Source: Oscarella lobularis (taxonomy: Eukaryota). From it: 64,000 bases of DNA. The stretch is taken from the NCBI RefSeq assembly GCF_947507565.1, contig NC_089179.1, positions 990,681-1,054,680 of the forward strand. Direction: 5' to 3'. Position 1 is the stretch's first letter. Every line of letters begins with the position of its first letter. Below the pieces are notes generated by a model. That model had not been told where the DNA came from. It saw only the letters and a list, made by a program, of their open reading frames with translations, and did not search any database. Both the position numbers and the translations under genes were made by a program. Shown in pieces: positions 31,330 to 63,735 of the stretch.

Positions 31330-31503
31330 AAGAAAAGGAACAACGCTTTGTATTGACGCACCTTTTTCTCTTTTCCTGTGTTGTTATTTTGTTCACGTGT
31401 GACGTAAAAATTTACCCCCCCTTCGCTGATTTGTTTCACATTGCACCCCTGCAAGAAACACGCCACAAGTGATGTACACTCCCACGCAAACACGTTTGAT
31501 CAT

Positions 31504-35227: not shown

Positions 35228-35750
35228 GACTTGCTTGCATATTGTGTGTTCTGAGTAAAATGAGTTTGTGTTGACTGGAACAGATAGTTATAGCTAATTC
35301 TAATCCAAAATGAAAATACTCAAGTATACTTACTGAAAACGTCGGTTTATGTGATTGCGTCATATGGTACCAAAAGATCCATATTGTAGCCTGAGGCGCT
35401 TGGCTCGTCATACGCGGAGAAGCAGATGGATGGAAGCTGATTTTTCATCAGGTCAGACGTCAGGGCAAAGTCAAAAACGTTAATCGTTCCTCGTACTCTA
35501 CGAGAAAGAACATAAATTCAAATAAAGATACTCATACTGAGACGTACGAAGATTTTAGAATGACATCCTCGTCGCTTTCATACCACGTCCAATCTTTGCC
35601 AGCTGGAACATTACCAACAATCAGTTTAGTATCAAAAAAGGAGCACAGCTCAACGGGATGCCTAAATAAAACACGAGACGAGATACAGTAGCTGCCGAGC
35701 AACAAAAGACGGGAAACTAACCTACTACTTGTTTCCCATAATAAAACTTC
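35228..35750. repeat. Dispersed segment, copy 1 of a roughly 0.5-kb direct duplication. It is re-found at 63231-63735 and carries the phosphatase 3' exon.
   Basis: 35235-35750 and 63238-63727 are near-identical by direct reading, including the ORF ...HPVELCSFFDTKLIVGNVPAGKDWTWYESDEDVILKSSYVS on the minus strand. Confidence 0.85.
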
Positions 35751-36036
35751 CTCATTAAAAGGATCCGACCAGAGCAGATCGCAGAACAAGCCGGTAAGAG
35801 GAGGCTCCCGAAATCGATCCAGCGCTCGAATATCGTCAACAGAATGCAAATGAGGACCTACAAGAAAAAATAATAAATAGACATAGTAGGAATTCTAATA
35901 CGTGCACTCACTTATTCCACCATGCAAACAGAGCCATTTCCCAATAGGTGACGTAGCGAGACAAGCAATAGGTAGACAATCAAAACACGCCATAAAACGC
36001 TCATACAAGACACTCCTCCCGAAAATTTTGCTCCTC
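35532..36036 (-). pseudogene. Middle and C-terminal exons of a PPP-family Ser/Thr protein phosphatase (PPEF-like, calcineurin-like fold). It is truncated at its 5' side by the satellite array.
   Basis: ...SKIFGRSVLYERFMACFDCLPIACLATSPIGKWLCLHGGIS matches the PPP motif FxDCFxxLP...HGG, and DIRALDRFREPPLTGLFCDLLWSDP matches the PPP (L/V)DLLWSDP motif. Reading 5'-ward, the exon runs straight into satellite sequence at 36037. Confidence 0.6.
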
Positions 36037-39000
36037 GTCGTACGTACTCCGCCGGCAGGCGATGTATATATTCCGGCAAGTGGTGCACGTATACTCAGCC
36101 GGCAGGCGATGTATATATTCCTGCAAGTGGTGTACGTATACTCAGCCGGCAGGCGAAGTACATATTCCGTCAAGTGGTGTACGTACTCCGCCGGCAGGCG
36201 GTGTATATATTCCGGCAAGCGGTGTACGTACTACGCCGGCAGGCGATGTACATATTCCGGCAAGTGGTGTACGTACTCCGCAGGCAGGCGATGTATATAT
36301 TCCGGCAAGCGGTGTACGTACTCCGCCGGCAGGCGATGTATATATTCCGGCAAGTGGTGTACGAACTCCGCCGGAGGCGGTGTGTATATTCCGGCAAGCG
36401 GTGTACGTACTCCGCCTGCAGGCGGTGTATATAATCCGGCAAGTGGTGTACTCCGCCGGCAGGCGGTGTATATATTCCGGCAAGTGGTGTACGTACTCCG
36501 CCGGAGGGCGATGTATATATTCCGGCAAGTGGTGTACGTACTCCGCCGGCAGGCGATGAATATATTCCGGCAAGAGGTGTACGTACTCCACAGGCAGGCG
36601 GTGCATATATTCCGGCAGGCGGTGCATATATTCCAGCAAGTGGTGTACGTTCTCCGCCGGCAGGCGATGTATATATTCCGGCAAGTGGTGTACGTACTCC
36701 GCCGGCAGGCGGTGTATACATTACGGCAGGCGGTGCATATATTCCGGCAAGTGGTGTACGTACTCCGCCGGCAGGCGATGAATATATTCCGGCAAGAGGT
36801 GTACGTACTCCACAGGCAGGCGGTGCATATATTCCGGCAGGCGGTGCATATATTCCAGCAAGTGGTGTACGTTCTCCGCCGGCAGGCGATGTATATATTC
36901 CGGCAAGTGGTGTACGTACTCCGCCGGCAGGCGGTGTATACATTCCGGCAGGCGGTGCATATATTCCGGCAAGTGGTGTACGTACTCCGCCGGCAGGCGA
37001 TGTATATATTCCGGAAAAAGGTGTATATATTCCGGCAAGAGGTGTACGTACTCCGCCGGCAGGCGATGTATATATTCCGACAAGTGGTGTACGTACTCCG
37101 CCGGAAGGCGGTGTATATATTCCGGAGAGTGGTGAACGTACTCCGCCGGCTGGCGGTGTATATATTCCAAAAAGAGGTGTATATATTCCGGCAAGGTGTG
37201 TACGTACTCCGCCGGCAGGCGGTGTATATATTCCGGCAGGTGGTGTACGTGCTCTGCCGGCAGGCGGTGTATATATTCGGGCAAGCGGTGTATATATTCC
37301 GGAAGGCAGTGTACCTACTCCGCCGGGAGGCGGTGTATATATTCCTGCAGGCGTGTACGTACTCTGCCAGCAGGCGGTGTATATATTACAGAAAGCGAGT
37401 ATATATTCCGGAAGGCAGGTTACGTACTACGCCGGCAGGCGGTGTATATATTACGGAGAGCGGTGTACGTACTCCGCCTGCAGGCGGTGTATATATTACG
37501 GCAAGCGGTGTACGTATACTCAGCCGGCAGGCGATGTATATATTCCGGGGAGATGTGTATATATTCCGGCAAGAGGTGTACGTACTCCGCCGGTAGGCGA
37601 TGTATATATTCCGACAAGTGGTGTACGTACTCCGCCGGCTGGCGGTGTATATATTCCAGCAAAGAGGCGTATATATTCCGGCAAGGGGTGTACGCACTCC
37701 GCCGGCAGGCGGTGTATATATTCCGGTGAGTGGTGTACGTACTCCGCCGGCTGGCGGTGTATATATTCCGGCAAGAGGTGTATATAATCCGGCAAAGGGT
37801 GTACGTACTCCGCCGGTAGGCGGAGTATATATTCCGCCAAGTGGTGTACGTATACTCCACCGGAAGGCGGTGTATATATTCCGGCAAGCGGTGTACGTAC
37901 TCCGCGGGCAGGCGGTGTATATATTCCGGAAGGCAGTGTACGTACTCCGCCGGCAGGCGGTGTATATGATCCGGCAAGCGGTGTACGTACTCCGGAGGCA
38001 GGCGGTGTATATATTCCGGAAAACGTGTACGTACTCCGCCGGCAGGCGGTGTATATATTCCGGCAAGCGAGTATATATTCCGGATAGCAGTGTACGTACT
38101 CCGCCGGCAGGCGGTGTGTATATTCGGGCAAGCGGTAAATATATTCCGGAAGGCAGTGTACCTACTCCGCCGGGAGGCGGTGTATATATTCCTGCAGGCG
38201 TGTACGTACTCTGCCAGCAGGCGGTGTATATATTACAGAAAGCGAGTATATATTCCGGAAGGCAGGTTACGTACTACGCCGGCAGGCGGTGTATATATTA
38301 CGGAGAGCGGTGTACGTACTCCGCCTGCAGGCGGTGTATATATTACGGCAAGCGGTGTACGTATACTCAGCCGGCAGGCGATGTATATATTCCGGGGAGA
38401 TGTGTATATATTCCGGCAAGAGGTGTACGTACTCCGCCGGTAGGCGATGTATATATTCCGACAAGTGGTGTACGTACTCCGCCGGCTGGCGGTGTATATA
38501 TTCCGGCAAGAGGTGTATATAATCCGGCAAAGGGTGTACGTACTCCGCCGGTAGGCGGAGTATATATTCCGCCAAGTGGTGTACGTATACTCCACCGGAA
38601 GGCGGTGTATATATTCCGGCAAGCGATGTACGTACTCCGCAGGCAGGCGATGTATATATTCCGGCAAGTGGTGTATGTACTCCGCCGGCAGGCGATGTAT
38701 ATACTCCGGCAAGTGGAGTACGTACTCCGCCGGCAGGCGGTGTATATATTCCGGCAAGCGGTGTACGTACTCCGCAAGCAGGCGATGTATATATTCCGGC
38801 AAGTGGAGTACGTACTCCGCCGGCAGGCGGTGTATATATTCCGGCAAGCGGTGTACGTACTCCGCAAGCAGGCGATGTATATATTCCGGCAAGAGGTGTA
38901 CGTACTCCGCAGGCAGGCGATGTATATATTCGGGCAAGAGGTGTACGTACTCCGCCGGGTGGCGGTGTATATATTCCGGCAGGTGGTGTACGTATACTCA

Positions 39001-42000
39001 GCCGGCAGGCGGTGTATATATTCCGGCAAGCGGTGTACGTACTCCGCAGGCAGGCGATGTATATATTCCGGCAAGAGGTGTATATATTCCGGCAAGTGGT
39101 GTATGTACTCCGCCGGCAGGCGATGTATATACTCCGGCAAGTGGAGTACGTACTCCGCCGGCAGGCGGTGTATATATTCCGGCAAGTGGAGTACGTACTC
39201 CGCAAGCAGGCGATGTATATATTCCGGCAAGAGGTGTACGTACTCCGCAGGCAGGCGATGTATATATTCCGGGAAGTGTTGTACGTACTCCGCCGGCAGG
39301 CGGTGTGTATATTCCGGCAAGAGGTGTACGTACCCCGCCGGCAGGCGATGTATATATTCCGGCAAGTGGTGTATATATTCCGGCAAGAGGTGTAGGCGAT
39401 GTATATATTCCGGCAAAACGTGTACGTACTCCGCCGGCAGGCGGTGTATATATTCCGGCAAGAGGTGTACGTACTCCGCCGGCAGGCGATGTATATATTC
39501 CGGCAAGACGTGTACGTACTCCGCCTGCAGGCGGTGTATATTTTCCGGCAAGTGGCGTACGTACTCCGCCGGCAGGTGATGTATATATTCCGGGCAGGGG
39601 TGTACGTATACTCCGCCGGCAGGCGATGTATATATTCCGGCAAGCGGTGTACGTACTCCGCCGGCAGGCGATGTATATATTCGAGCAAGTGGTCTACGTA
39701 CTCCGACGGCAGGCGGTGGATATATTCCGGCAAGTGGTGTACGTACTCCGCCGGCTGGCGGTGTATATATTCCGGCAAGAGGTGTACGTACTCGGCAGGC
39801 AGGCGATGTATATATTCAGGCAAGAGGTGTATATATTCCGGCAAGAGGTGTACGTACTCCGCCGGCAGGCGATGTATATATTCCGGCAAGACGTGTACGT
39901 ACTTCGCCGGCAGGCGGTGTATATATTCCGGCAAGCGAGTATATATTCCGGAAGGCAGGTTACGTACTACGCCGGCAGGCGGTGTATATATTCCGGCAAG
40001 CGGTGTATATATTACGGAGAGCGGTGTACGTACTCCGCCGGCAGGCGATGTATATATTCCGACAAGTGGTGTACGTACTCCGCCGGAAGGCGGTGTATAT
40101 ATTCCGGAGAGTGGTGTACGTACTCCGCCGGCAGGCGGTGTATATATTCCGGGAAGCGGTGTATATATTACGGCAAGCGGTGTACGTACTCCGCGGGCAG
40201 GCGGTGTATATATTCCGGCAGGCGTGTACATACTCCGCCGGCGAGCGGTGTATATATTCCGGAAGGCAGTGTACGTACTCCGCCGGCAGGCGGTGTATAT
40301 GATCCGGCAAGCGGTGTACGTACTCCGGAGGCAGGCGGTGTATATATTCCGGAAAACGTGTACGTACTCCGCCGGCAGGCGGTGTATATATTCCGGCAAG
40401 CGAGTATATATTCCGGATAGCAGTGTACGTACTCCGCCGGCAGGCGGTGTATATATTCCGGAGGGCCGTGTATATATTCGGGCAAGCGGTGTATATATTC
40501 CGGAGGGCAGTGTACCTACTCCGCCGGGAGGCGGTGTATATATTCCTGCAGGCGTGTACGTACTCTGCCAGCAGGCGGTGTATATATTACAGCAAGCGAG
40601 TATATATTCCGGAAGGCAGGTTACGTACTACGCCGGCAGGCGGTGTATATATTCCGGCAAGCGGTGTATATATTACGGAGAGCGGTGTACGTACTCCGCC
40701 TGCAGGCGGTGTATATATTACGGCAAGCGGTGGGTATATTCCGGCAAGCAGTGTATATATTCCGGAAGGCATTGTACGTACTCCGCCGGCAGGCGGTGTA
40801 TATATTCTGGAGAGCGGTGTACATATTCCGGCAGGCGGTGCACGTACTCCGCCGGCAGGCGATGTATATATTCCGGCAAGTGGTGTACGTATACTCCGCC
40901 GGGTGGCGGTGTATATATTCCGGCAGGTGGTGTACGTATACTCAGCCGGCAGGCGATGTATATACTCCGGCAAGTGGTGTACGTATACTCCGCCGGCAGG
41001 CGATGTATATACTCCGGCAAGTGGTGTACGTATACTCCGCCGGCAGGCGATGTATATATTCCGGCAAGTGGTGTACGTATACTCCGCCAGTAGGCGGTGT
41101 ATATATTCCGGCAAGTGGTGTACGTACTCCGCCGGCAGGCGATGTATATATTCCGGCAAGTGGTGCACGTATACTCAGCCGGCAGGCGATGTATATATTC
41201 CTGCAAGTGGTGTACGTATACTCAGCCGGCAGGCGATGTACATATTCCGTCAAGTGGTGTACGTACTCCGCCGGCAGGCGGTGTATATATTCCGGCAAGC
41301 GGTGTACGTACTACGCCGGCAGGCGATGTACATATTCCGGCAAGTTGTGTACGTACTCCGCAGGCAGGCGATGTATATATTCCGGCAAGTGGTGTACGTA
41401 CTCAGCCGGCAGGCGGTGTATATATTCCGGCAGGCGATGTATATATTCAGGCAAGAGGTGCACGTACTCCGCAGGAAGGCGATGTATATATTCCGGGGAG
41501 ATGTGTATATATTCCGGCAAGAGGTGTACGTACTCCGCCGGTAGGCGATGTATATATTCCGACAAGTGGTGTACGTACTCCGCCGGCTGGCCGTGTATAT
41601 ATTCCAGCAAAGAGGTGTATATATTCCGGCAAGGGGTGTACGCACTCCGCCGGCAGGCGGTGTATATATTCCGGTAAGTGGTGTACGTACTCCGCCGGCT
41701 GGCGGTGTATATATTCCGGCAGGCGGTGTATATATTCCGGCAAGCGGTGTATATATTCCGGCAAGCGGTGTATATATTCCGGCAGGCGGTGTATATATTC
41801 CGGCAGGCGGTGTATATATTCCGGCAGGCGTGTACGTACACCGCCGGCAGGCGGTGTATATATTCCGGCAGGCGTGTACGTACTCCGCCGGCAAGCGGTG
41901 TATATATTCCGGCAGGCGGTGTATATATTCCGGCAGGCGGTGTATATATTCCGGCAGGCGGTGTACGTACTCCGCCGGCAAGCGGTGTATATATACCGGC

Positions 42001-42111
42001 AGGCGTGTACGTACACCGCCGGCAAGCGGTGTATATATTCCGGCAGGCGGTGTATATATTACGGCAGGCGGTGTATATATTCCGGCAAGCGGTGTATATA
42101 TTCCGGCAGGC

Positions 42112-42281
42112 GGCTACAACGACTACAATGACTGCAACGGCTACAATGACTACAACGACTACAACGACTACAACGGCTACAACGGCTACAACGGCTACAA
42201 CGACTACAACGGCTACAACGACTACAACGGCTACAACGACTACAACGGCTACAATGGCTACAACGACTACAATGACTGCAG
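42112..42281. repeat. Short tract of an 18-bp (9+9) minisatellite, GGCTACAAC GACTACAAC, embedded in the satellite.
   Basis: Direct reading. It is flanked on both sides by the 21/24-bp satellite. Confidence 0.9.
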
Positions 42282-42694
42282 GCGGTGTATATATTCCGGC
42301 AGGCGGTGTACGTACTCCGCCGGCAAGCGGTGTATATATTCCGGCAGGCGGTGTACGTACTCCGCCGGCAAGCGGTGTATATATACCGGCAGGCGTGTAC
42401 GTACACCGCCGGCAAGCGGTGTATATATTCCGGCAGGCGGTGTATATATTCCGGCAAGCGGTGTAAATATACCGGCAAGCATGTACTCCGCCGGGGGGCG
42501 GTGTATATATTCCGGCAAGCGGTGTACGTACTCCGCTGGCAGGCGTGTACGTTCTCCGCCGGCAGGCGGTGTATATATTCCGGCAAACAGTGTATATATT
42601 CCGGCAAGCGGTGTATATATTCCGGCAGGCGTGTACGTACTCCGCCGGCAGGCGGTGTATATATTCCGGCAGGCGGTGTATATATTCTGGCAAG

Positions 42695-44883
42695 AAACTA
42701 CAACGGCTACAACTACAACAACTACCACAACGGCTACAATGACTACAACGACTACAACGGCTACAATGACTACAATGACTACAATGACTGCAACGGCTAC
42801 AATGACTACAACGACTACAACGGCTACAATGACTACAATGACTGCAACGGCTACAATGACTACAACGACTACAACGACTACAACGGCTACAACGACTACA
42901 ACGACTACAACGGCTACAACGACTACAACGGCTACAACGGCTACAACGACTACAACGGCTACAACGACTACAACGGCTACAACGACTACAATGACTACAA
43001 TGACTACAATGACTGCAACGACTACAACGGCTACAACGACTACAACGGCTACAACGGCTACAACGACTACAACGGCTACAACGACTACAATGACTACAAT
43101 GACTACAATGACTGCAACGGCTACAATGACTATAACGACTACAACGACTACAACGGCTACAACGACTACAACGGCTACAACGGCTACAACGGCTACAACG
43201 ACTACAACGGCTACAACAACTACAACGGCTACAACGACTACAACGGCTACAACGACTACAACGGCTACAACGACTACAATGACTACAATGACTACAATGA
43301 CTGCAACGGCTACAATGACTACAACGACTACAATGACTACAACGGCTACAACGACTACAACGGCTACAACGACTACAACGGCTACAACGACTACAACGGC
43401 TACAACGACTACAACGGCTACAACGGCTACAACGACTACAACGGCTACAACGACTACAATGACTACAATGACTACAATGACTGACACGGCTACAATGACT
43501 ACAACGACTACAACGACTACAACGGCTACAACGGCTACAACGGCTACAACGGCTACAACGACTACAACGGCTACAACGACTACAACGGCTACAACGACTA
43601 CAACGGCTACAACGACTACAACGGCTACAACGACTACAATGACTACAATGACTACAATGACTGCAACGGCTACAATGACTACAACGACTACAACGACTAC
43701 AACGGCTACAACGACTACAACGGCTACAACGACTACAACGGCTACAACGGCTACAACGACTACAACGGCTACAACGACTACAATGACTACAATGACTACA
43801 ATGACTGCAACGGCTACAATGACTACAACGACTACAATGACTACAACGGCTACAACGACTACAACGGCTACAACGACTACAACGGCTACAACGACTACAA
43901 CGGCTACAACGACTACAACGGCTACAACGGCTACAACGACTACAACGGCTACAACGACTACAATGACTACAATGACTACAATGACTGACACGGCTACAAT
44001 GACTACAACGACTACAACGACTACAACGGCTACAACGGCTACAACGGCTACAACGGCTACAACGACTACAACGGCTACAACGACTACAACGGCTACAACG
44101 ACTACAACGGCTACAACGACTACAACGGCTACAACGACTACAACGACTGCAACGGCTACAACGACTACAATGACTGCAATGACTACAATGACTGCAACGG
44201 CTACAACGACTACAACGACTACAACGGCTACAACGGCTACAACGACTACAACGGCTACAACGACTACAACGGCTACAACGGCTACAACGGCTACAACGAC
44301 TACAACGACTACAACGACTACAATGACTACAATGACTACAATGACTGCAACGGTTACAATGACTACAACGACTACAACGACTACAACGGCTACAACGACT
44401 ACAACGGCTACAACGACTACAACGGCTACAACGACTACAACGGCTACAACGACTACAACGGCTACAACGACTACAATGACTACAATGACTACAACGACTG
44501 CAACGGCTACAACGACTACAACGACTACAACGGCTACAACGACTACAACGGCTACAACGACTACAACGGCTACAACGACTACAACGGCTACAACGACTAC
44601 AACGGCTACAACGGCTACAACGGCTACAACGACTACAATGACTACAATGACTACAATGACTGCAACGGCTACAATGACTACAACGACTACAACGACTACA
44701 ACGGCTACAACGACTACAACGGCTACAACGACTACAACGGCTACAACGACTACAACGGCTACAACGACTACAACGGCTACAACGACTACAACGACTACAA
44801 CGGCTACAATGACTACAATGACTGCAACGGCTACAATGACTACAACGACTACAACGGCTACAACGACTACATCGGCTACAACG
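42695..44883. repeat. A 2.2-kb minisatellite of 9-bp units (GGCTACAAC / GACTACAAC / GACTACAAT / GACTGCAAC) with a supra-periodicity of about 150-190 bp.
   Basis: The marker variant GACTGCAACGGCTACAATGAC recurs at roughly 42840, 43011, 43104, 43296, 43477, 43656, 43803, 43981, 44155, 44343, 44497, 44651 and 44821. Confidence 0.9.
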
Positions 44884-46559
44884 GTGTATATATTCCGGAA
44901 GGCAGTGTACGTACTTTGCCGACAGGCAGTGTATATATTACGGAAGCGGTGTACATACTCCGCGGGCAGGCGGTGTATATATTCCGGCAAGCGGTGTATA
45001 TATTCCGGAAGGCAGTGTACGTACTTTGCCGGCAGGCGGTGTATATATTCCGGCAGGCGGTGTATATATTCCGGCAAGCGGTGTATATATTACGGCAAGC
45101 GGTGTATATATTCCGGCAGGCGGTGTATATATTCCGGCAGGTGTATACATACTCCGCCGGCAGGCGGTGTATATATTCCGGCAAGCGGTGCATATATTCC
45201 GGCAGGCGGTGTACGTACACCGCCGGCAGGCGGTGTATATATACCGGCAGGCGTGTACGTACTCCGCCGGCAAGCGGTGTATATATTCCGGCAGGCGTGT
45301 ACGTACTCCGCCGGCAAGCGGTGTATATATTCCGGCAGGCGTGTACGTACTCCGCCGGCAAGCGGTGTATATATTCCGGCAGGCGGTGTATATATTCCGG
45401 CAGGCGGTGTATATATTCCGGCAGGCGGTGTATATATTCCGGCAGGCGTGTACGTACTCTGCCAGCAGGCGGTGTATATATTCCGGCAGGCGGTGTATAT
45501 ATTCCGGCAGGCGGTGTATATATTCCGGCAGGCGTGTACGTACACCGCCGGTAGGCGGTGTATATATTCCGGCAGGCGTGTACGTACACCGCCGGCAGGC
45601 GGTGTATATATTCCGGCAGGCGGTGTATATATTCCGGCAGGCGTGTACGTACTCCGCCGGCAAGCGGTGTATATATTCCGGCAGGCGGTGTATATATTCC
45701 GGCAGGCGGTGTATATATTCCGGCAGGCGGTGTATATATTCCGGCAGGCGTGTACGTACTCCGCCGGCAAGCGGTGTATATATTCCGGCAGGCGTGTACG
45801 TACTCCGCCGGCAGGCGGTGTATATATTCCGGCAGGCGTGTACGTACTCTGCCAGCAGGCGGTGTATATATTCCGGCAGGCGGTGTATATATTCCGGCAA
45901 GCGGTGTATATATACCGGCAGGCGTGTACGTACTCCGCCGGCAAGCGGTGTATATATTCCGGCAGGCGGTGTATATATTCCGGCAGGCGTGTACGTACTC
46001 CGCCGGCAAGCGGTGTATATATTCCGGCAGGCGGTGTATATATTCCGGCAAGCGGTGTATATATTCCGGCAGGCGTGTACGTACTCCGCCGGCAAGCGGT
46101 GTATATATTCCGGCAGGCGGTGTATATATTCCGGCAGGCGGTGTATATATTCCGGCAAGCGGTGTATATATTCCGGCAGGCGGTGTACGTACACCGCCGG
46201 CAGGCGGTGTAGATATACCGGCAGGCGTGTACGTACTCCGCCGGCAAGCGGTGTATATATTCCGGCAGGCGGATTATATATTCCGGCAGGCGGTGTATAT
46301 ATTCCGGCAAGCGGTGTACGTATCCGCTGGCAGGCGGTGTATATATTCCGGAAGGCAGTGTATATGTGTATATATTCCGGCAGGCGTTGTATATATTCCG
46401 GCAAGCGGTGTATATATTCCGGCAGGCGTGTACGTACTCCGCCGGCAAGCGGTGTATATATTCCGGCAGGCGGTGTATATATTTCGGCAAGCGGTGTATA
46501 TATACCGGCAAGCGTGTACGTACTCCTTATGAATAGTCTTACCTTCGGGTGGACGATCT

Positions 46560-49137: not shown

Positions 49138-51125
49138 ATGGGTCGAAATCTCTCTATCGTCTTCCTCATCGTCGTTTTCGTTCGATTTGCGCACGGTAGG
49201 CGACGTCACTCGAGCGTTCTTCGTCGCCGTGAGCTCCCCTTTGTTTTGTTTCTTGTCGTAGCCTGCCCATCGATCGATTTCGAGTGCGACAACGGGCTCT
49301 GCATTCCGAAAGAGTGGCAGTGCGACGGCGATTGGGATTGTCGCGACGGCGAGGACGAATTCGGCTGTCCCGGTTAGCGAGAGAACGCGTTTTTCCTCCC
49401 CTGCGCTGCACACAGCGCTGTAGTGTCGTAGTTTTTCCGCTCGGGGGCCCCCCTTTCTCGCTCCCACGCCTACATGTGTACCTTTCTTCTTTTGCTTCCG
49501 GGGAATCCCCCAGCGAGCCGGAATTGTAGCGCGGGCGAATTTCGGTGCGCGAACGGTCACTGCATACGTCCGACGTGGAAGTGCGATCAGGACAACGATT
49601 GCGGCGACGGCAGCGACGAATCGAATTGTCGTAAGTTTTAGAGATTTCATATCTCCGGCTTTTTTGTTTCGGAAACGTAAAGTAAAAAAAGCGGGCCACC
49701 AGAGTAACTTTATTATCTCTGATGGCACGTGCGTTTTTCGTTATACAGTATCCTTTTTTTGAAGAGTCACTCTCGTATGATAACCTATAGCTCATTGACG
49801 ATGCACTGAATCTCCTGCATAAATATTTTGCCCTTATATAGGTCGATCGTGCAATGCCTAAAATACAAGACTTAGAGCACGCAGTAATGTATTATTTTTT
49901 TCTTGTAGCGCTTAAAAATTGCACGTCTTCCGAGTTCAAGTGCGACCAGGGTAAGTGCATTCGAGCGAGCTGGCAGTGCGACGGCCATAACGACTGCAGC
50001 GATTCGTCGGACGAGAGAAATTGCAGTAAGTTACGATGCCATACGGCAAAAAGGAAAGAGTCGTTTCTTCGTCTCCTAGCGGGCGTCACCTGTTCGGCGG
50101 TCGAATTCCAATGCGTCGGAACGTCCGAGTGCATCGCGCAAAGTTGGAAATGCGATGGCGAATCCGATTGCGGTAATGGAGCGGACGAAAAAGATTGCCG
50201 TAAGTATTAGAGGGAGGGTAATCGCAGAGAGGAGGTCGTTTTCTCACAGCTCCCACAACGAATTGCTCCGCGAATCAGTTTCTCTGCGCATCAAAGCGCT
50301 GCATTCCGGCAAGCTACGTGTGCGATCGCGACAACGACTGCGGCGATTGGTCAGACGAATCGTCGTGCCGTAAGAATAGAGTAGTACCAATGGTACCCCC
50401 ATCTCACGCGTCGATTAGGTGCGCCCGGCAATTGCGCCGCAGACGAGTTGAAATGCCGCAGCGGCTTGTGCATTCCGTCCTTGTGGCGTTGCGACAGCGA
50501 TTACGACTGCGAATTGAATTCCGACGAAGAGAACTGCAGTACGTGGGGAATTAGTAGAAATCTCCTCTCCCCCTCTCCCCCCTCCCCAAAAAAAATTTTT
50601 ATGGGACTTGTCAAACTTATAGACAAAGGCTATTCACTGAAAACTCTAATTTATAGCCTAAGGAAAATGTTTGGTTTGATTGATCGGGATGATTACAATG
50701 CGGTGCTTCGCTTGGAAAGAGTCTAGGACTCTTAGCTAGCCTAATTAGTGCAATCTTCTAGGAACTTCACTTAGAAGGAGGAGACTTAATTTTCCGTATA
50801 GAAAACTCTAAAATGGGGAGACTCCCAATATTTGCCGGTTTTTAATTCGCCTTTTTTTAAAAAATTAGCCTGTCTTCCTGGCGAGTTTCACTGCGCCAAT
50901 TATCGTTGCATTCCGATGAGCAAAAGATGCGACGGGACGGACGATTGCGGCGACGGCTCGGACGAAAGCAATTGTCGTAAGCGACTTATTAGAGACCCCT
51001 AACGAGATGATGAAGAGAAACAGGCGCTTTTTTTAGCTACGCCTACTCCGACAGTTCCGCCCTGCCCTCAGAACGAGTTCACGTGTGGCGATGGGCAGTG
51101 CATAGCGCAAAAGTCGGTGTGCGAT
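49138..51125 (+). pseudogene. Gene with a signal peptide followed by eight LDL-receptor class A (LDLa) cysteine-rich modules, one module per phase-1 exon. The eighth module is cut mid-domain by the satellite array.
   Basis: Signal peptide [20 protein letters not shown]. Modules: [35 protein letters not shown]; [35 protein letters not shown]; CTSSEFKCDQGKCIRASWQCDGHNDCSDSSDERNC; CSAVEFQCVGTSECIAQSWKCDGESDCGNGADEKDC; [35 protein letters not shown]; [35 protein letters not shown]; [35 protein letters not shown]; CPQNEFTCGDGQCIAQKSVCD|satellite. Every exon ends ...C|GTAAG and starts after a ...AG acceptor in phase 1. Confidence 0.8.
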
Positions 51126-54100
51126 ATTCCGGCAAGAGGTGTACGTACTCCGCCGGTAGGCGATGTATATATTCCGACAAGTGGTGTACGTACTCCGCCG
51201 GCTGGCGGTGTATATATTCCAGCAAAGAGGTGTATATATTCCGGCAAGGGGTGTACGCACTCCGCCGGCAGGCGGTGTATATATTCCGGTAAGTGGTGTA
51301 CGTACTCCGCCGGCTGGCGGTGTATATATTCCAGCAAAGAGGTGTATATATTCCGGCAAGGGGTGTACGCACTCCGCCGGCAGGCGGTGTATATATTCCG
51401 GTAAGTGGTGTACGTACTCCGCCTGAGGCGGTGTATATATTCCGGCAAGTGGTGTACTCCGCCGGCAGGCGGTGTATATATTCCGGCAGGCGGTGTATAT
51501 ATTCCGGCAAGAGGTGTACGTACTCAGCCGGCAGGCGGTGTATATATTCCGGCAAGTGGTGTACGTACTCCGCCGGAGGGCGATGTATATATTCCGGCAA
51601 GTGGTGTACGTACTCCGCCGGCAGGCGATGAATATATTCCGGCAAGAGGTGTACGTACTCCACAGGCAGGCGGTGCATATATTCCGGCAGGCGGTGCATA
51701 TATTCCAGCAAGTGGTGTACGTTCTCCGCCGGCAGGCGATGTATATATTCCGGCAAGTGGTGTACATACTCCGCCCGCTGTATACATTCCGGCAGGCGGT
51801 GCATATATTCCGGCAAGTGGTGTACGTACTCCGCCGGCAGGCGATGTATATATTCCGGAAAAAGGTGTATATATTCCGGCAAGAGGTGTACGTACTCCGC
51901 CGGCAGGCGATGTATATATTCCGACAAGTGGTGTACGTACTCCGCCGGCTGGCGGTGTATATATTCCAGCAAAGAGGCGTATATATTCCGGCAAGGTGTG
52001 TACGTACTCCGCCGGCAGGCGGTGTATATATTCCGGCAGGTGGTGTACGTGCTCCGCCGGCAGGCGGTGTATATATTACGGCAAGCGGTGGGTATATTCC
52101 GGCAAGCAGTGTATATATTCCGGAAGGCATTGTACGTACTCCGCCGGCAGGCGGTGTATATATTCCGGAGAGCGGTGTACATATTCCGGCAGGCGGTGCA
52201 CGTACTCCGCCGGCAGGCGATGTATATATTCCGGCAAGACGTGTACGTACTCCGCCGGCAGGCGGTGTATATATTCCGGCAAGAGGTGTACGTACTTCGC
52301 CGGCAGGCGGTGTATATATTCCGGCAAGAGGTGTACGTTCTCCGCCGGAAGGCGGTGAATATATTCCGGCAAGTGATGAACGTACTCCGCCGGCAGGCGA
52401 TGTATATATTCCGGCAAGTGGTGTACTTACTCCGCCGGCAGGCGATGTATATATTCCGGCAAGTGGTGTACGTATACTCCGCCGGGTGGCGGTGTATATA
52501 TTCCGGCAAGTGGTGTACGTATACTCAGCCGGCAGGCGATGTATATATTCCGGCAAGTGGTGTACGCACTCCGCCGGGAGGCGGTGTATACATTCCGGTA
52601 AGTGGTGTACGTACTCCGCCGGCTGGCGGTGTATATATTCCAGCAAAGAGGTGTATATATTCCGGCAAGGGGTGTACGCATTCCGCCGGCAGGCGGTGTA
52701 TATATTCCGGTAAGTGGTGTACATAATCCGGCAAGGGGTGTACGTACTCCGCCGGTAGGCGGAGTATATATTCGGCCAAGTGGTGTACGTATACTCCACC
52801 GGCAGGCGGTGTATATATTCCGGCAAGCGGTGTACGTACTCCGCAGGCAGGCGATGTATATATTCCGGCAAGAGGTGTATATATTCCGGCAAGTGGTGTA
52901 TGTACTCCGCCGGCAGGCGATGTATATACTCCGGCAAGTGGAGTACGTACTCCGCAGGCAGGCGATGTATATATTCCGGCAAGAGGTGTATATATTCCGG
53001 CAAGTGGTGTATGTACTCCGCCGGCTGGCGGTGTATATATTCCAGCAAAGAGGTGTATATATTCCGGCAAGGGGTGTACGCACTCCGCCGGCAGGCGGTG
53101 TATATATTCCGGTAAGTGGTGTACATAATCCGGCAAGGGGTGTACGTACTCCGCCGGTAGGCGGAGTATATATTCGGCCAAGTGGTGTACGTATACTCCA
53201 CCGGCAGGCGGTGTATATATTCCGGCAAGAGGTGTATATATTCCGGCAAGTGGTGTATGTACTCCGCCGGCAGGCGATGTATATACTCCGGCAAGTGGAG
53301 TACGTACTCCGCAGGCAGGCGATGTATATATTCCGGCAAGAGGTGTATATATTCCGGCAAGTGGTGTATGTACTCCGCCGGCTGGCGGTGTATATATTCC
53401 AGCAAAGAGGTGTATATATTCCGGCAAGGGGTGTACGCACTCCGCCGGCAGGCGGTGTATATATTCCGGTAAGTGGTGTACATAATCCGGCAAGGGGTGT
53501 ACGTACTCCGCCGGTAGGCGGAGTATATATTCGGCCAAGTGGTGTACGTATACTCCACCGGCAGGCGGTGTATATATTCCGGCAAGCGGTGTACGTACTC
53601 CGCAGGCAGGCGATGTATATATTCCGGCAAGAGGTGTATATATTCCGGCAAGTGGTGTATGTACTCCGCCGGCAGGCGATGTATATACTCCGGCAAGTGG
53701 AGTACGTACTCCGCCGGCAGGCGGTGTATATATTCCGGCAAGCGGTGTACGTACTCCGCAAGCAGGCGATGTATATATTCCGGCAAGAGGTGTACGTACT
53801 CCGCCGGCAAGCGGTGTATATATTCCGGGAAGCGGTGTACGTACTCCGCCGGCAGGCGGTGTATATATTCCGGCAGGCGCTGTATATATTCCGGTGAGTT
53901 GTGTAGGTACTCCGCCGGCAGGCGATGTATATATTTCGGAAAGTGGTGTACGTACTGCGCAGGCAGGCGATGTATGTATTCCGGGAAGTGTTGTACGTAC
54001 TCCGCCGGCAGGCGGTGTGTATATTCCGGCAAGAGGTGTACGTACCCCGCCGGCAGGCGATGTATATATTCCGGCAAGTGGTGTATATATTCCGGCAAGA

Positions 54101-57100
54101 GGTGTACGTACTCCGCAGGCAGGCGATGTATATATTCCGGCAAGAGGTGTATATATTCCGGCAAGTGGTGTATGTACTCCGCCGGCAGGCGATGTATATA
54201 CTCCGGCAAGTGGAGTACGTACTCCGCCGGCAGGCGGTGTATATATTCCGGCAAGCGGTGTACGTACTCCGCAAGCAGGCGATGTATATATTCCGGCAAG
54301 AGGTGTACGTACTCCGCCGGAAGGCGGTGTATATATTCCGGCAAGCGGTGTACGTACTCCGCAAGCAGGCGATGTATATATTCGGGCAAGAGGTGTACGT
54401 ACTCCGCCGGCAGGCGATGTATATATTCCGACAAGTGGTGTACGTACTCCGCCGGCAGGCGGTGTATATATTCCGGCAGGCGCTGTATATATTCCGGCGA
54501 GTGGTGTAGGTACTCCGCCGGCAGGCGATGTATATATTCCGGCAAGAGGTGTACGTACTCCGCCGGAAGGCGGTGTATATATTCCGGCAAGCGGTGTACG
54601 TACTCCGCAAGCAGGCGATGTATATATTCGGGCAAGAGGTGTACGTACTCCGCCGGCAGGCGATGTATATATTCCGGCAAGTGGTGTACGTACTTCGCCG
54701 GCAGGCGGTGTGTATATTCCGGCAAGAGGTGTACGTACTCCGCCGGAAGGCGGTGTATATATTCCGGCAAGCGGTGTACGTACTCCGCAAGCAGGCGATG
54801 TATATATTCGGGCAAGAGGTGTACGTACTCCGCCGGCAGGCGATGTATATATTCCGACAAGTGGTGTACGTACTCCGCCGGCAGGCGGTGTATATATTCC
54901 GGCAGGCGCTGTATATATTCCGGCGAGTGGTGTAGGTACTCCGCCGGCAGGCGATGTATATATTCCGGCAAGTGGTGTACGTACTTCGCCGGCAGGCGGT
55001 GTGTATATTCCGGCAAGAGGTGTACGTACTCCGCCGGTAGGCGATGTATATATTCCGGCAAGACGTGTACGTACTCCGCCGGCAGGCGGTGTATATATTC
55101 CGGCAAGAGGTGTACGTTCTCCGCCGGAAGGCGGTGAATATATTCCGGCAAGCGGTGTACGTACTCCGCAGGCAGGCGATGTATATATTCCGGCAAGAGG
55201 TGTACGTACTCCGCCGGCAGGCGGTGTATATATTCCGGGAAGCGGTGTACGTACTCCGCCGGCAGGCGGTGTATATATTCCGGCAGGCGCTGTATATATT
55301 CCGGTGAGTTGTGTAGGTACTCCGCCGGCAGGCGATGTATATATTCCGACAAGTCGTGTACGTACTCCGCCGGAAGGCGGTGTATATATTCCGGAGAGTG
55401 GTGTACGTACTCCGCCGGCTGGCGGTGTATATATTCCGGCAAGAGGTGTATATATTCCGGCAAGATGTGTACGTACTCCGCCTGCAGGCGGTGTATATAT
55501 TCCGGCAGGTGGTGTACGTGCTCCGCCGGCAGGCGGTGTATATATTCCGGCAAGCGGTGTACGTACTCCGCCGGCAGGCGGTGTATATATTCCGGCAGGC
55601 GATCTATATATTCCGGCAAGTGATGAACGTACTCCGCCGGCATGCGGTGTCTATATTCGGGCAAGTGGTGTACGTACTCCGCCGGCAGGCGGTGTATATA
55701 TTCCGGCAAGTGGTGCACGTATACTCAGCCGGCAGGCGATGTATATATTCCTGCAAGTGGTGTACGTATACTCAGCCGGCAGGCGAAGTACATATTCCGT
55801 CAAGTGGTGTACGTACTCCGCCGGCAGGCGATGTACATATTCCGGCAAGTGGTGTACGTACTCCGCAGGCAGGCGATGTATATATTCCGGCCAGCGGTGT
55901 ACGTACTCCGCCGGCAGGCGATGTATATATTCCGGCAAGTGGTGTACGTACTTCGCCGGCAGGCGGTGTGTATATTCCGGCAAGAGGTGTACGTACTCCG
56001 CCGGAAGGCGGTGTATATATTCCGGCAAGCGGTGTACGTACTCCGCAAGCAGGCGATGTATATATTCGGGCAAGAGGTGTACGTACTCCGCCGGCAGGCG
56101 ATGTATATATTCCGACAAGTGGTGTACGTACTCCGCCGGCAGGCGGTGTATATATTCCGGCAGGCGCTGTATATATTCCGGCGAGTGGTGTAGGTACTCC
56201 GCCGGCAGGCGATGTATATATTCCGGCAAGTGGTGTACGTACTTCGCCGGCAGGCGGTGTGTATATTCCGGCAAGAGGTGTACGTACTCCGCCGGTAGGC
56301 GATGTATATATTCCGGCAAGACGTGTACGTACTCCGCCGGCAGGCGGTGTATATATTCCGGCAAGAGGTGTACGTTCTCCGCCGGAAGGCGGTGAATATA
56401 TTCCGGCAAGCGGTGTACGTACTCCGCAGGCAGGCGATGTATATATTCCGGCAAGAGGTGTACGTACTCCGCCGGCAGGCGGTGTATATATTCCGGGAAG
56501 CGGTGTACGTACTCCGCCGGCAGGCGGTGTATATATTCCGGCAGGCGCTGTATATATTCCGGTGAGTTGTGTAGGTACTCCGCCGGCAGGCGATGTATAT
56601 ATTCCGACAAGTCGTGTACGTACTCCGCCGGAAGGCGGTGTATATATTCCGGAGAGTGGTGTACGTACTCCGCCGGCTGGCGGTGTATATATTCCGGCAA
56701 GAGGTGTATATATTCCGGCAAGATGTGTACGTACTCCGCCTGCAGGCGGTGTATATATTCCGGCAGGTGGTGTACGTGCTCCGCCGGCAGGCGGTGTATA
56801 TATTCCGGCAAGCGGTGTACGTACTCCGCCGGCAGGCGGTGTATATATTCCGGCAGGCGATCTATATATTCCGGCAAGTGATGAACGTACTCCGCCGGCA
56901 TGCGGTGTCTATATTCGGGCAAGTGGTGTACGTACTCCGCCGGCAGGCGGTGTATATATTCCGGCAAGTGGTGCACGTATACTCAGCCGGCAGGCGATGT
57001 ATATATTCCTGCAAGTGGTGTACGTATACTCAGCCGGCAGGCGAAGTACATATTCCGTCAAGTGGTGTACGTACTCCGCCGGCAGGCGATGTACATATTC

Positions 57101-60100
57101 CGGCAAGTGGTGTACGTACTCCGCAGGCAGGCGATGTATATATTCCGGCCAGCGGTGTACGTACTCCGCCGGCAGGCGATGTATATATTCCGGCAAGTGG
57201 TGTACGAACTCCGCCGGAGGCGGTGTGTATATTCCGGCAAGCGGTGTACGTACTCCGCCTGCAGGCGGTGTATATATTCCGGCAAGTGGTGTACTCCGCC
57301 GGCAGGCGGTGTATATATTCCAGCAAAGAGGCGTAAATATTCCGGCAAGCGGTGTACGTACTCCGCCTGCAGGCGGTGTATATATTCCGGTAAGTGGTGT
57401 ACGTACTCCGCCGGCTGGCGGTGTATATATTCCAGCAAAGAGGCGTATATATTCCGGCAAGGGGTGTACGCACTCCGCCGGCAGGCGGTGTATATATTCC
57501 GGCAAGAGGTGTATATAATCCGGCAAGGGGTGTACGTACTCCGCCGGTAGGCGGAGTATATATTCCGCCAAGTGGTGTACGTATACTCCACCGGAAGGCG
57601 GTGTATATATTCAGGCAAGCGGTGTACGTACTCCGCAGGCAGGCGATGTATATATTCCGGCAAGAGGTGTATATATTCCGGCAAGTGGTGTATGTACTCC
57701 GCCGGCAGGCGATGTATATACTCCGGCAAGTGGAGTACGTACTCCGCCGGCAGGCGGTGTATATATTCCGGCAAGCGGTGTACGTACTCCGCAAGCAGGC
57801 GATGTATATATTCCGGCAAGTGGAGTACGTACTCCGCCGGCAGGCGGTGTATATATTCCGGCAAGCGGTGTACGTACTCCGCAAGCAGGCGATGTATATA
57901 TTCCGGCAAGAGGTGTACGTACTCCGCAGGCAGGCGATGTATATATTCCGGGAAGCGGTGTACGTACTCCGCCGGCAGGCGATGTATATATTCGGGCAAG
58001 AGGTGTATATATTCCGGCAAGTGGTGTACGTACTCCGCCGGCAGGCGATGAATATATTCCGGCAAGAGGTGTACGTACTCCACAGGCAGGCGGTGCATAT
58101 ATTCCGGCAGGCGGTGCATATATTCCAGCAAGTGGTGTACGTTCTCCGCCGGCAGGCGATGTATATATTCCGGCAAGTGGTGTACGTACTCCGCCGGCAG
58201 GCGATGTATATATTCCGGAAAAAGGTGTATATATTCCGGCAAGAGGTGTACGTACTCCGCCGGAAGGCGGTGTATATATTCCGGAGAGTGGTGAACGTAC
58301 TCCGCCGGCTGGCGGTGTATATATTCCGGAAAGAGGTGTATATATTCCGGCAAGGTGTGTACGTACTCCGCCGGCAGGCGGTGTATATATTCCGGCAGGT
58401 GGTGTACGTGCTCCGCCGGCAGGCGGTGTATATATTCTGGGAAGCGGTGTACGTACTCCGCCGGCAGGCGGTGTATATATTCCGGCAGGCGATCTATATA
58501 TTCCGGCAAGTGATGTACGTACTCCGCCGGCATGCGATGTATATATTCCGGCAAGTGGAGTATGTACTCCGCCGGCAAGCGGTGTATATATTTCGGCAAG
58601 CGGTGTATATATTCCGGAAGGAAGTCTACTTACTCCGCCGGCAGGCGGTGTATATATTCCTGCAGACGTGTACGTACTCCGCCGGCAGGCGGTGTATATA
58701 TTCCGGCAAGCGGTGTATATATTACGGCAAGCGGTGTACGTACTCCGCGGGCAGGCGGTGTATATATTCCGGCAGGCGTGTACATACTCCGCCGGCGAGC
58801 GGTGTATATATTCCGGAAGGCAGTGTACGTACTCCGCCGGCAGGCGGTGTATATGATCCGGCAAGCGGTGTACGTACTCCGCAGGCAGGCGATGTATATA
58901 TTCGGGCAAGCGGTGTACGTACTCCGCCGGCAGGCGGTGTATATATTCCGGCAGGCGCTGTATATATTCCGGTGAGTTGTGTAGGTACTCCGCCGGCAGG
59001 CGATGTATATATTTCGGCAAGTGGTGTACGTACTCCGCCGGCAGGCGGTGTATATATTCCGGAAGGCGGTGTATATATTCCGGAGAGCGGTGTACGTACT
59101 CCGCCGGCAGGCGAAGAATATAATCCGGCAAGAGGTGTACGTACTCCGCAGGCAGGCGGTGTATATATTCCGGCAGGCGGTGTATATTTTCCGGCAAGTG
59201 GCGTACGTACTCCGCCGGCAGGTGATGTATATATTCCGGGCAGGGGTGTACGTATACTCCGCCGGCAGGCGATGTATATATTCCGGCAAGCGGTGTACGT
59301 ATACTCCGCCGGCAGGCGATGTATATATTCGGGCAAGTGGTCTACGTACTCCGACGGCAGGCGGTGGATATATTCCGGCAAGTGGTGTACGTACTCCGCC
59401 GGCAGGCGGTGTATATATTACGGCAAGCCGTGTACGTACTCCGGAGGCAGGCGCTGTATATATTACGGCAAGCGGTGTACGTACCCCGCCGGCAGGCAGT
59501 GTATATATTACGGAAGCGGTGTACATAGTCCGCGGGCAGGCGGTGTTTATATTCCGGCAGGCGTATACGTACTCCGCCGGGAGGCGGTGTATATATTCCG
59601 GAAAGCGGTGTATATATTCCGGAAGGCAGTGTACGTACTCCGCCGGAAGGCGGTGTATATATACCGGCAGGCGTGTACGTACTCCGCCGGCAGGCGGTGT
59701 ATATACTCCGGAGAGCGGTGTATATATTCCGGAGGGCAGTGTACGTACTCCGCCGGCAGGCGGTGTATATATTACGGCAAGCGGTGTACGTACTCCGCCG
59801 GCAGGCGGTGGATATATTACGGCAAGTGGTGTACATACTCCGGAGGCAGGCGGTGTATATAATACGGCAGGCGGTGTATATATTCCGGAAGGCAGTGTAC
59901 GTACTCCGCCGGCAGGCGGTGTATATATTCCGGCAAGCGGTGTATATATTCCTGCAGGCGTGTACGTACTCCGCCGGCAGGCGGTGTATAGATACCGGCA
60001 GGCGCGTACGTACTCCGCCGGCACGATTACAACGGCTACAACGGCTACAACGACAACAACGGCTACAACGGCTACAACGGCCACAACGACTACAACGGCT

Positions 60101-61239
60101 ACAACGGTGTATATATTCCGGAAGGCAGTGTACGTACTCCGCCGGCAAGCGGTGTATATATTACGGCAAGCGGTGTACGTATTCCGCCTGCAGGCGGTGT
60201 ATATATTACGGCAAGTGGTGTACGTACTCCGCCGGCAGGTGGTGTATATGTATCGGCAGGCGTGTACGTACTCCGCCGGCAGGCGGTGTATATATTCCTG
60301 CAGGCGTGTACGTACTCCGCCGGCAGGCGGTGTATATATTCCGGCAGGCGTGTACGTACTCTGCCAGCAGGCGGTGTATATATTCCGGCAAGCGGTGTAT
60401 ATATTCCGGAAGGCAGTGTACGTACTCCGCCGGCAGGCGGTGTATATATTCCGGAAGGCGTGTACGTATTCCGCCGGCAGGCGGTGTATATATTCCGGCA
60501 AGCGGTGTATATATTCCGGAAGGCAGTGTACGTACTTTGCCGACAGGCAGTGTATATATTCCGGCAAGTGGTGTACGCACTCCGCCGGCAGGCGGTGTAT
60601 ACATTCCGGCAGGCGGTGCATATATTCCGGCAAGTGGTGTACGTACTCCGCCGGCAGGCGATGTATATATTCCGGAAAAAGGTGTATATATTCCGGCAAG
60701 AGGTGTACGTACTCCGCCGGCAGGCGATGTATAAATTCCGACAAGTGGTGTACGTACTCCGCCGGAAGGCGGTGTATATATTCCGGAGAGTGGTGTACGT
60801 ACTCCGCCGGCTGGCGGTGTATATATTCCGGAAAGAGGTGTATATATTCCGGCAAGGTGTGTACGTACTCCGCCGGCAGGCGGTGTATATATTCCGGCAG
60901 GTGGTGTACGTGCTCCGCCGGCAGGCGGTGTATATATTCTGGGAAGCGGTGTACGTACTCCGCCGGCAGGCGGTGTATATATTCCGGCAGGCGATCTATA
61001 TATTCCGGCAAGTGATGTACGTACTCCGCCGGCATGCGATGTATATATTCCGGCAAGTGGAGTATGTACTCCGCCGGCAAGCGGTGTATATATTTCGGCA
61101 AGCGGTGTATATATTCCGGAAGGAAGTCTACTTACTCCGCCGGCAGGCGGTGTATATATTCCTGCAGACGTGTACGTACTCCGCCGGCAGGCGGTGTATA
61201 TATTCCGGCAAGCGGTGTATATATTACGGCAAGCGGTGT
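51126..61239. repeat. Satellite array block 2 (about 10.1 kb). Same 21/24/45-bp family and orientation as block 1, with clear higher-order repeats.
   Basis: Direct reading. The higher-order periods are about 400 bp (52.5-53.8 kb) and about 1.26 kb (55.3-56.6 kb versus 56.6-57.9 kb). Confidence 0.95.
60026..60107. repeat. Third small tract of the GGCTACAAC-type 9-bp minisatellite.
   Basis: Direct reading. Confidence 0.85.
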
Positions 61240-61244
61240 TTCCT

Positions 61245-61520
61245 CGACGTCATGCATCGGCACTCGTGATTGCCTCAAAGCAAGAATATTCGCTCGGGAA
61301 ACGCGCCCTTTAACGCTAATAGATATATCATGCAGGTGAACGAATCGGGGCCGCGATCGACGTGGTCGCCGAGGAAGAGAAACGTCGAGTTGTTTCGCGG
61401 CTCGGCTTTGAGACCGCGGAGAATGCGATCGGGAAGACGGCGCGTTTGGGACGGCGTTTTCGGCGTGTCGTGCAGGAGACCGCCGCCGGCGGCGGTACGA
61501 AACAATTTAATCAGATCTAA
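61245..61520 (-). pseudogene. N-terminal catalytic exon of a PPP-family Ser/Thr phosphatase (GDxHG, GDxVDRG, GNHE motifs) with an in-frame TGA in place of the Arg of LLRGNHE. It abuts the satellite at its 3' side.
   Basis: The minus-strand translation is [23 protein letters not shown]-(about 25-aa insert)[44 protein letters not shown], followed directly by satellite. The 61776-62201 minus ORF upstream may be its N-terminal region. Confidence 0.6.
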
Positions 61521-63230: not shown

Positions 63231-63735
63231 ACGAGTAAAATGACTTTGTGTTGACTGGAACAGATAGTTATAGCTAATTCTAATCCAAAATGAAAATACT
63301 CAAGTATACTTACTGAAAACGTCGGTTTATGTGATTGTGTCATATGGTACCAAAAGATCCATATTGTAGCCTGAGGCGCTTGGCTCGTCATACGCGGAGA
63401 AGCAGATGGATGGAAGCTGATTTTTCATCAGGTCAGACGTCAGGGCAAAGTCAAAAACGTTAATCGTTCCTCGTACTCTACGAGAAAGAACATAAATTCA
63501 AATAAAGATACTCACTCATACTAACGTACGAAGATTTTAGAATGACATCCTCGTCGCTTTCATACCACGTCCAATCTTTGCCAGCTGGAACATTACCAAC
63601 AATCAGTTTAGTATCAAAAAAGGAGCACAGTTCAACGGGATGCCTAAATAAAACACGAGACGAGATACAGTAGCTGTCAAGCAACAAAAGACGGGAAACT
63701 AACCTACTACTTGTTTCCCATAATAAAGTGTTTTT
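63231..63735. repeat. Copy 2 of the 0.5-kb duplicated segment (a partial, truncated copy of the phosphatase 3' exon region).
   Basis: Near-identical to 35228-35750. It diverges at about 63727 where copy 1 continues into further phosphatase exons. Confidence 0.85.

Follow-up and report, generated by a model that had tools for sequence, protein, structure and literature searches.

We analysed 64,000 nucleotides of the Oscarella lobularis genome (assembly ooOscLobu1.1, GCF_947507565.1; PMC13284214, reference 46), namely positions 990,681 to 1,054,680 of contig NC_089179.1, in which two fragments of a PPP phosphatase gene are separated by about 25 kb of mostly satellite DNA. This stretch is referred to as the window, and positions are those of the window unless stated otherwise. 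Based on sequence comparison, the two fragments are very probably the two halves of a single partial duplicate, unprocessed and without function, of a calcineurin-like/EF-hand phosphatase gene of O. lobularis. A preliminary description of the window had read it as a gene destroyed by satellite DNA and had named a separate intact phosphatase gene elsewhere as the finding that would make this copy a dead duplicate. Such a gene was found (632 aa, 97-99% exon identity, on another chromosome), so the window copy is to be seen as the dead duplicate.

Both phosphatase pieces are encoded on the minus strand. The 5' piece carries the motifs GDVHG (61541-61527), GDHVDRG (61370-61350) and LL*GNHEC (61283-61260), and its translation, …ICGDVHGQF…ERIFLL*GNHECRCMTSRK, is followed directly by tandem repeats. 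The 3' piece comes out of tandem repeats as …YERFMACFDCLP…LHGGIS and resumes after an intron as PHLHS…LLWSDPFNEEV, with FMACFDCLP, LHGG and LLWSDP all located within 36.0-35.76 kb. When canonical calcineurin A was compared with the window by tblastn, the upstream piece (E=7e-21) and the downstream piece (E=3e-16) were recovered with shared order and strand. This confirms the earlier reading that order and strand are correct for one gene. That reading also had the fragments ending in coding exons against satellite, and both junctions indeed lie in mid exon. GT..AG introns are kept in the 5' piece, which is also matched by tblastn of P0241 residues 1-184. RefSeq protein XP_065831290.1 ('protein phosphatase 3 catalytic subunit alpha-like [Oscarella lobularis]', 190 aa) is a 100% match to the 5' piece, and the model stops at the in-frame TGA. 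The best further database matches of the catalytic part were PP2B/calcineurin A catalytic subunits with 42-44% identity, and the gene is therefore calcineurin-like rather than PP1-like.

The 90%-identity cluster of XP_065831290.1 also includes XP_065839702.1 (632 aa) and a 60-aa open reading frame (ORF) from an assembly in ENA. XP_065839702.1 is encoded on a different contig of 2.69 Mb, compared with 3.62 Mb for the contig of the window locus. Via the 60-aa ORF we reached the parent locus, 20 kb of contig ptg000340l in ENA ERZ18545485 (L001), where the spliced coding sequence equals exactly residues 1-276 of XP_065839702.1 and the whole gene occupies L001 9188-11773. Pfam analysis of the parent yielded a Metallophos domain and a C-terminal EF-hand pair, an arrangement akin to calcineurin A (PP2B/PPP3C) and the EF-hand PPP phosphatases of the PPEF/RdgC type. 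The parent is, however, a divergent relative of these enzymes, and the window copy is no functional member of the group. As an observation in its own right, the parent gene is unusual: its catalytic domain resembles calcineurin but shares only ~43% identity with canonical PP2B, an insert of 30 residues follows GDVHGQF…LF, and an EF-hand pair is fused on at the C-terminus; its RefSeq label is 'uncharacterized'.

Alignment of the window with the parent locus by blastn defined the extent of the copy. Window 63142-61239 corresponds to L001 8056-10018, with weaker homology (67%) reaching back to window 63232 (L001 ~7960), and window 36042-35745 corresponds to L001 10016-10051 plus 10071-10327 (96-97%). 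The copied segment thus spans ~2.37 kb and takes in 1.2 kb upstream of the gene as well as exons 1-3 and the beginning of exon 4, introns included. Identity between copy and parent is 97-99% in exons, 96% in upstream DNA and 90-99% in introns. The higher identity of the exons fits a history in which the parent has been constrained and the copy has not, as judged from the alignment.

The breakpoint within exon 3 could be placed to the base. The parent reads …ATGACGTCGAGGAAATACGACGAGGGGCAAAAT…, whereas the upstream piece in the window ends …GAGGAAA and the downstream piece begins TACGACGAGGAG…. The two pieces are contiguous with respect to the parent (…TCG AGG AAA / TAC GAC GAG…, encoding SRK/YDE), with a block of 25,196 bp (61238-36043) lying between two adjacent parental bases. 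No target bases were lost or gained, and 1-3 bases (A; TAC) are common to satellite and phosphatase sequence at the junctions. About 15 residues had previously been thought missing at this point. That estimate does not hold: twelve of them (YDEEQNFREECL) are present at 36042-36007 in another frame, and only RLYNEDV is lost. In exon 3b, YDEEQNFREECL is followed by a 20-bp deletion at ~36008/36007 and then by YERFMACFDCLP…LHGGI. This deletion, 35 bp inside the downstream piece, removes RLYNEDV and changes the frame. Two further lesions affect conserved motifs of the copy. The arginine codon of RGNHE, CGA in the parent, is TGA at 61277-61275, as the preliminary description had recognized, by a C→T change at a CpG, and Y143H converts GDYVDRG to GDHVDRG. 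Apart from these, the copy differs from its parent by five more amino-acid replacements, an additional Ala codon and five synonymous changes.

Homology to the parent stops at 35745, in the middle of exon 4 (parent: …FNEEV/TETFND…). Residues 273-632 of the phosphatase, the C-terminal ~57%, were sought across the window by tblastn and none were found; as far as the sequence tells, they were never present at this locus. A functional PPP Ser/Thr phosphatase core combines GDxHG, GDxVDRG, GNHE, HGG, RG, and a His with SAPNY in one ORF. The window copy has kept GDVHG and LHGG, but carries GDHVDRG, a TGA in place of the arginine and a frameshift, and no RG…SAPNY part is present. Without the RG, His and SAPNY portion of the catalytic core, the copy could never have worked, whatever the satellite did. 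In its overall make-up it resembles an unprocessed pseudogene or partial dispersed segmental duplication: an intact parent exists on another contig, the copy has kept three introns along with 1.2 kb of upstream DNA, a nonsense mutation, a frameshifting deletion and the loss of a conserved motif residue are found, and the segment is truncated at both ends, one of them in mid exon. It differs from a textbook case in two respects, being bracketed by a direct target duplication of ~494 bp and interrupted by a 25-kb satellite block with other pseudogene pieces.

The bracketing duplication stems from the tail of a WD40-repeat gene, here called X. Read in the direction of the minus strand, the WD40 gene is followed by X, the phosphatase duplicate split by the block, X again, and the next gene. 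The two X copies (35745-35253 and 63727-63233) are 97.8% identical over ~494 bp. Copy B has an intact GTTAGT splice donor and is continuous with the WD40 exon that precedes it at 63.8 kb (…GTVLVWDRRKNT/LLWETSSR), whereas the splice donor of copy A is degraded. The duplicated upstream region of the phosphatase begins at most a few bases from where copy B ends. The lower limit of 35532 given earlier for the phosphatase had taken in ~210 bp of the duplicated WD40-gene tail and has to be moved to 35745.

Between the two phosphatase pieces lie ~20.6 kb of tandem repeats and a single 4.6-kb unique island, with a k-mer mask returning 46527-51123 as the sole non-repetitive part of the block. According to Tandem Repeats Finder (TRF), units of 21, 24 and 45 bp account for ~18.4 kb and a 9-bp unit for ~2.4 kb. 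The arrays all have one orientation, segments at the kb scale are 82-90% alike, and a search for inverted matches among the arrays found none. Translations of satellite ORFs had a sole match, which led to a second, unrelated locus (L004 10412-13664, from ENA ERZ18545485 contig atg000034l), where a 45-bp variant (TCGTACTCCGCCTGCAGGCGGTATATATATTCCGTCAGGCGTTGT), ~74% identical to the window satellite, forms an array of 3.25 kb. The presence of a diverged array at an unrelated locus means that the satellite family is dispersed, and the repeats qualify as satellite DNA in that a short unit is reiterated head to tail over long arrays and at more than one locus. The 9-bp repeat (CTACAACGA / TACAACGGC) occurs inside the 45-bp satellite at 42697-44883 (2.2 kb), 42114-42277 (164 bp) and 60028-60107, and the 21 kb of L004 also contain six other minisatellite families.

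The block begins with CACCGC and ends with GTACG. Joining its end (…GGAGTACG) to its start (CACCGC…) through TA yields a 22-mer that occurs 29 times inside the arrays, and the ends are in monomer register with 181 internal matches when a 2-nt filler is allowed, a test that 15% of random end pairs pass as well. Hallmarks of DNA transposons, long terminal repeat elements or Helitrons were sought at the block and none were found; its termini are satellite monomers. Similar to a Helitron or another transposon with gene capture, the block sits between A and T without target duplication and has host gene fragments aboard. However, its ends are not 5'-TC and CTRR-3', terminal inverted repeats are lacking, the island is the only non-satellite sequence, and the second satellite locus has no non-satellite flank in common with it, so that a Helitron or terminal inverted repeat element was rejected despite the insertion at A^T. 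Two candidate target duplications were likewise discarded. The similar flanks ACGTCGAGGA and ACGACGAGGA, in the same frame and with ACG[T/A]CGAGGA in common, correspond to adjacent parts of the gene, as the parent contains both motifs. A long satellite duplication around the 9-mer array and the island (41.4-42.1 versus 51.1-51.8 kb) matches no better than other intra-array pairs.

The island holds pieces of two further genes arranged head to head, confirming the earlier view that one gene copy is interrupted by a satellite block carrying other gene pieces. In the copy of the NADH-cytochrome b5 reductase gene (CYB5R), the reading frame is broken by at least three frameshifts, and the sequence stops 17 bp inside the intron that comes after …FKLWYTLDRPPE (…DRPPE), with residues 245-301 missing. 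Its RefSeq model, XP_065830977.1, is a frameshifted protein of 251 aa, while an intact paralogue, XP_065836094.1 (301 aa), is located on a third contig of 3.31 Mb. Amino-acid divergence from the respective parent is ~2.7% for the CYB5R copy (frameshifted stretches excluded) and 2.6% for the phosphatase copy. The second fragment derives from a gene of LDL-receptor class A (LDLa) repeats and includes a start codon (ATG), a signal peptide and seven LDLa exons that are complete, one repeat per exon. The eighth repeat is cut in mid exon (after …CIAQKSVCD) by satellite array 1, at a microhomology resembling the satellite unit (CGGTGT…ATATT). Of the gene fragments joined to satellite, two are joined in mid exon and one 17 bp inside an intron, and they come from at least three chromosomes. 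Judging from these comparisons, the RefSeq proteins XP_065830977.1 (46527-47800) and XP_065831290.1 (61239-62140) would be better treated as pseudogenes. The features of the locus are collected in Table 1.

Table 1. Features of the phosphatase duplicate and the satellite block, with positions in the window, strand and basis of each assignment.
Feature	Position	Strand	Basis and details
X copy A	35253-35745	-	Duplicated WD40-gene tail fused to phosphatase 3' piece, 1-2 nt overlap at the junction
Phosphatase pseudogene, 3' piece	35745-36042	-	blastn to L001, tblastn of P0241; exon 3b 36042-35912, intron 35911-35858, partial exon 4 35857-35745 (…LLWSDPFNEEV)
Satellite array 2, 21/24/45-bp family	36043-42696		TRF; array end and junction also in haplotig L003
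9-bp (18-bp higher-order) tandem array CTACAACGA, ~243 copies	42697-44883		TRF, 91% matches
Satellite array of the 21/24/45-bp family, mainly 21-bp units	44884-46526		TRF
NADH-cytochrome b5 reductase pseudogene	46527-47800	-	tblastn and frame analysis; residues 2-244 of 301
LDL-receptor class A repeat gene fragment	49138-51123	+	Sequence; Pfam Ldl_recept_a, 8 stretches, E=1e-92
Satellite array 1	51124-61238		TRF and k-mer mask; 21- and 24-bp units, 45-bp dimer (CCGGCAGGCGGTGTATATATT / CCGGCAAGCGGTGTACGTACTCCG)
Phosphatase pseudogene, 5' piece	61239-62030	-	Exon 1 62030-61887, exon 2 61742-61641, exon 3a 61547-61239; ends …CRCMTSRK
Premature TGA in LL(R)GNHE	61275-61277	-	Parent alignment, codon 172 CGA versus TGA
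Duplicated upstream (promoter) region of parent phosphatase	62031-63232	-	blastn to L001 8056-9187, 94-96%
X copy B	63233-63727	-	Native last exons, stop codon and 3' untranslated region of the WD40-repeat gene reaching upstream to 64000

The simplest history of the locus is a nested one, with the duplicate arriving first and the block later in exon 3. The partial phosphatase duplicate would have been dead on arrival. The block would subsequently have been inserted ready-made, in a single piece, into a double-strand break in exon 3, using 1-3 nt of microhomology, and may represent a re-integrated, satellite-derived circular DNA. This last step is weakly suggested by the block ending in monomer register, a signature that growth of an array in situ from a small seed would produce equally. 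Spread of satellites into euchromatin via microhomology, possibly through extrachromosomal circular DNA (eccDNA), has been described for Rsp-like and 1.688 repeats in Drosophila (PMC7403614) and for Tribolium (PMC11610590). Sproul et al. propose that first and last monomers which together form a complete unit are the signature of re-integrated satellite circles (PMC7403614). The window resembles these cases in that its array is joined to unique DNA by 1-3 nt of microhomology without target-site duplication, that the first and last monomers complete one unit, and that a diverged array exists at an unrelated locus. It differs in the 25-kb size of the block, in its 4.6-kb island of host gene fragments and in its position inside a pseudogene exon, and a match in register as seen here would arise by chance in ~15% of cases. 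Movement of the whole 25.2-kb block in one piece, for instance as a circle excised from a larger satellite array which already bore a captured gene-pair fragment, is a possibility we consider unlikely.

Several observations weigh against the history outlined above or against parts of it. In-register ends arise in 15% of random end pairs, the similar divergence of the CYB5R and phosphatase copies (~2.6-2.7%) would also fit a single event, and the 5' piece is annotated in RefSeq as a protein of 190 aa. Furthermore, a second contig covering the upstream junction (61239/61238) and the block interior was sought through window ORFs and none was found, so both are represented in one assembly only.

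The whole 28-kb mosaic might instead result from a single template-switching event, similar to microhomology-mediated break-induced replication (MMBIR) or fork stalling and template switching (FoSTeS), in which pieces of at least three chromosomes were copied to give the order X, phosphatase 5' piece, satellite, island, satellite, phosphatase 3' piece, X, with re-entry into the WD40 tail. Such an event is consistent with the similar divergence of the phosphatase and CYB5R copies from their parents and with the microhomologies, which amount to 1-3 nt at the phosphatase junctions and 1-2 nt between phosphatase and X and include CGGTGT…ATATT between LDLa and satellite, while the ~494-bp duplication would mark the point of re-entry. 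However, a return to the exact next phosphatase base after 25 kb is improbable, and nested insertion needs fewer assumptions. We regard a single event as a serious though unlikely alternative.

The assembly itself was evaluated using a second haplotype. The ORF that crosses the junction between phosphatase and X is present on two ENA contigs, ptg000012l (3.81 Mb) and ptg000374l (94.7 kb). The former is identical to the window over 20.3 kb and is therefore not independent. The block is situated ~72% of the way along a 3.8-Mb contig. The contig ptg000374l (L003) is a distinct haplotype with 99.43% identity over 10.5 kb of unique DNA, and it carries the window's satellite-phosphatase junction, the 20-bp deletion and the junction between phosphatase and X, with one single-nucleotide polymorphism (SNP; GGG versus GAG at 36032) at which it retains the parental base. 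In the satellite (L003 1-4092 versus window 40059-36043), identity falls to 92.9% with 26 indel events over 4.1 kb. The difference between haplotypes is roughly ten-fold greater there than in the adjacent unique DNA, indicating that the array turns over quickly. Dating of the arrays by unit divergence was dropped because of this discrepancy. A chimeric assembly, in which the junctions or the placement of the pieces would be artefacts of repeat assembly, has some circumstantial appeal: array lengths reach 6-10 kb, the contig of the alternate haplotype comes to an end after 4.1 kb of satellite, the window and ptg000012l are the same sequence, and the interior order of array, island and array comes from one assembly. 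Yet a random misjoin is not expected to produce breakpoints that are complementary to the base with respect to the parent, the downstream junctions are seen again on the contig of another haplotype, which is marked by a SNP of its own, and array segments only 82-90% alike at the kb scale allow HiFi reads to be placed uniquely. Base-exact complementary breakpoints together with the second haplotype make a chimeric join at the junctions very unlikely, and we assign very little probability to an assembly artefact as a whole.

Destruction of a functional phosphatase locus by insertion or expansion of satellite, as first proposed for the window, is highly improbable. The interruption by the block is real, since the block interrupts the exon precisely and the 5' piece retains a promoter region, the ATG and introns, but the locus was no functional gene, as the copy already lacked over half of the coding sequence. 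The parent gene is intact on another chromosome, homology ends on both sides at the ~494-bp WD40 tail so that codons 273-632 were never included, and the exons are closer to the parent than are introns and upstream DNA, as expected if only one lineage was constrained. The extraordinary intron offered as the alternative, i.e. a 25-kb spliceosomal intron removed to give a working mRNA, can practically be dismissed: order and strand are correct and a cryptic GT (61247-61246) and AG (36035-36034) could join the pieces in frame, but the insertion point lies inside an uninterrupted parent exon (ORF P0242), the block ends are CACCGC…GTACG and not GT…AG, a joined product would still be interrupted by the TGA, shifted in frame by the 20-bp deletion and devoid of the 3' half, and the RefSeq model ends at the TGA. 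The cryptic join as such was ruled out on account of the continuity of the parent exon, the TGA and the frameshift.

Some neighbouring features were noted in addition. A selenoprotein H/W-like gene is located at 33900-34450 on the plus strand (Pfam Rdx, E=1e-9), where splicing IEHC/VSU places an in-frame TGA (34146-34148) in a CxxU redox motif. This TGA probably encodes selenocysteine and not a stop, as judged from its sequence context; an Rfam gathering scan for a selenocysteine insertion sequence (SECIS) element found none. A glycosyltransferase family 92 gene (PF01697) is present as a tandem duplicate at 31448-32450 and 32774-33819 on the minus strand with 96.6% identity, and a 33-bp tandem repeat of ~11 copies with 76-94% identity occupies 13492-13873. 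A search of the window for structured RNAs and tRNAs, which also covered the GC-rich stretch lying upstream of the phosphatase, found none.

In conclusion, what appeared to be a satellite-destroyed gene or a gene with a 25-kb intron is with high probability a dead partial duplicate of a gene that is intact elsewhere, and two RefSeq models, XP_065831290.1 and XP_065830977.1, can be flagged as pseudogene-derived. Both phenomena involved, a duplicated pseudogene fragment and a patch of satellite rearrangement, are already well known; the literature is essentially without descriptions of satellite biology in a sponge, an early-branching animal. The locus provides a well-resolved case, haplotype-confirmed at its downstream junctions, of base-precise joins between satellite and gene fragments in a sponge whose genome is compact. 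The remaining interest lies in the route by which a 25-kb satellite block carrying pieces of host genes was inserted with single-base precision, and the locus could serve as a test case for distinguishing eccDNA re-integration from template switching in an early-branching animal. If the block did move as a unit, sponge satellite arrays would be able to ferry pieces of host genes between chromosomes with base precision and without transposon machinery.

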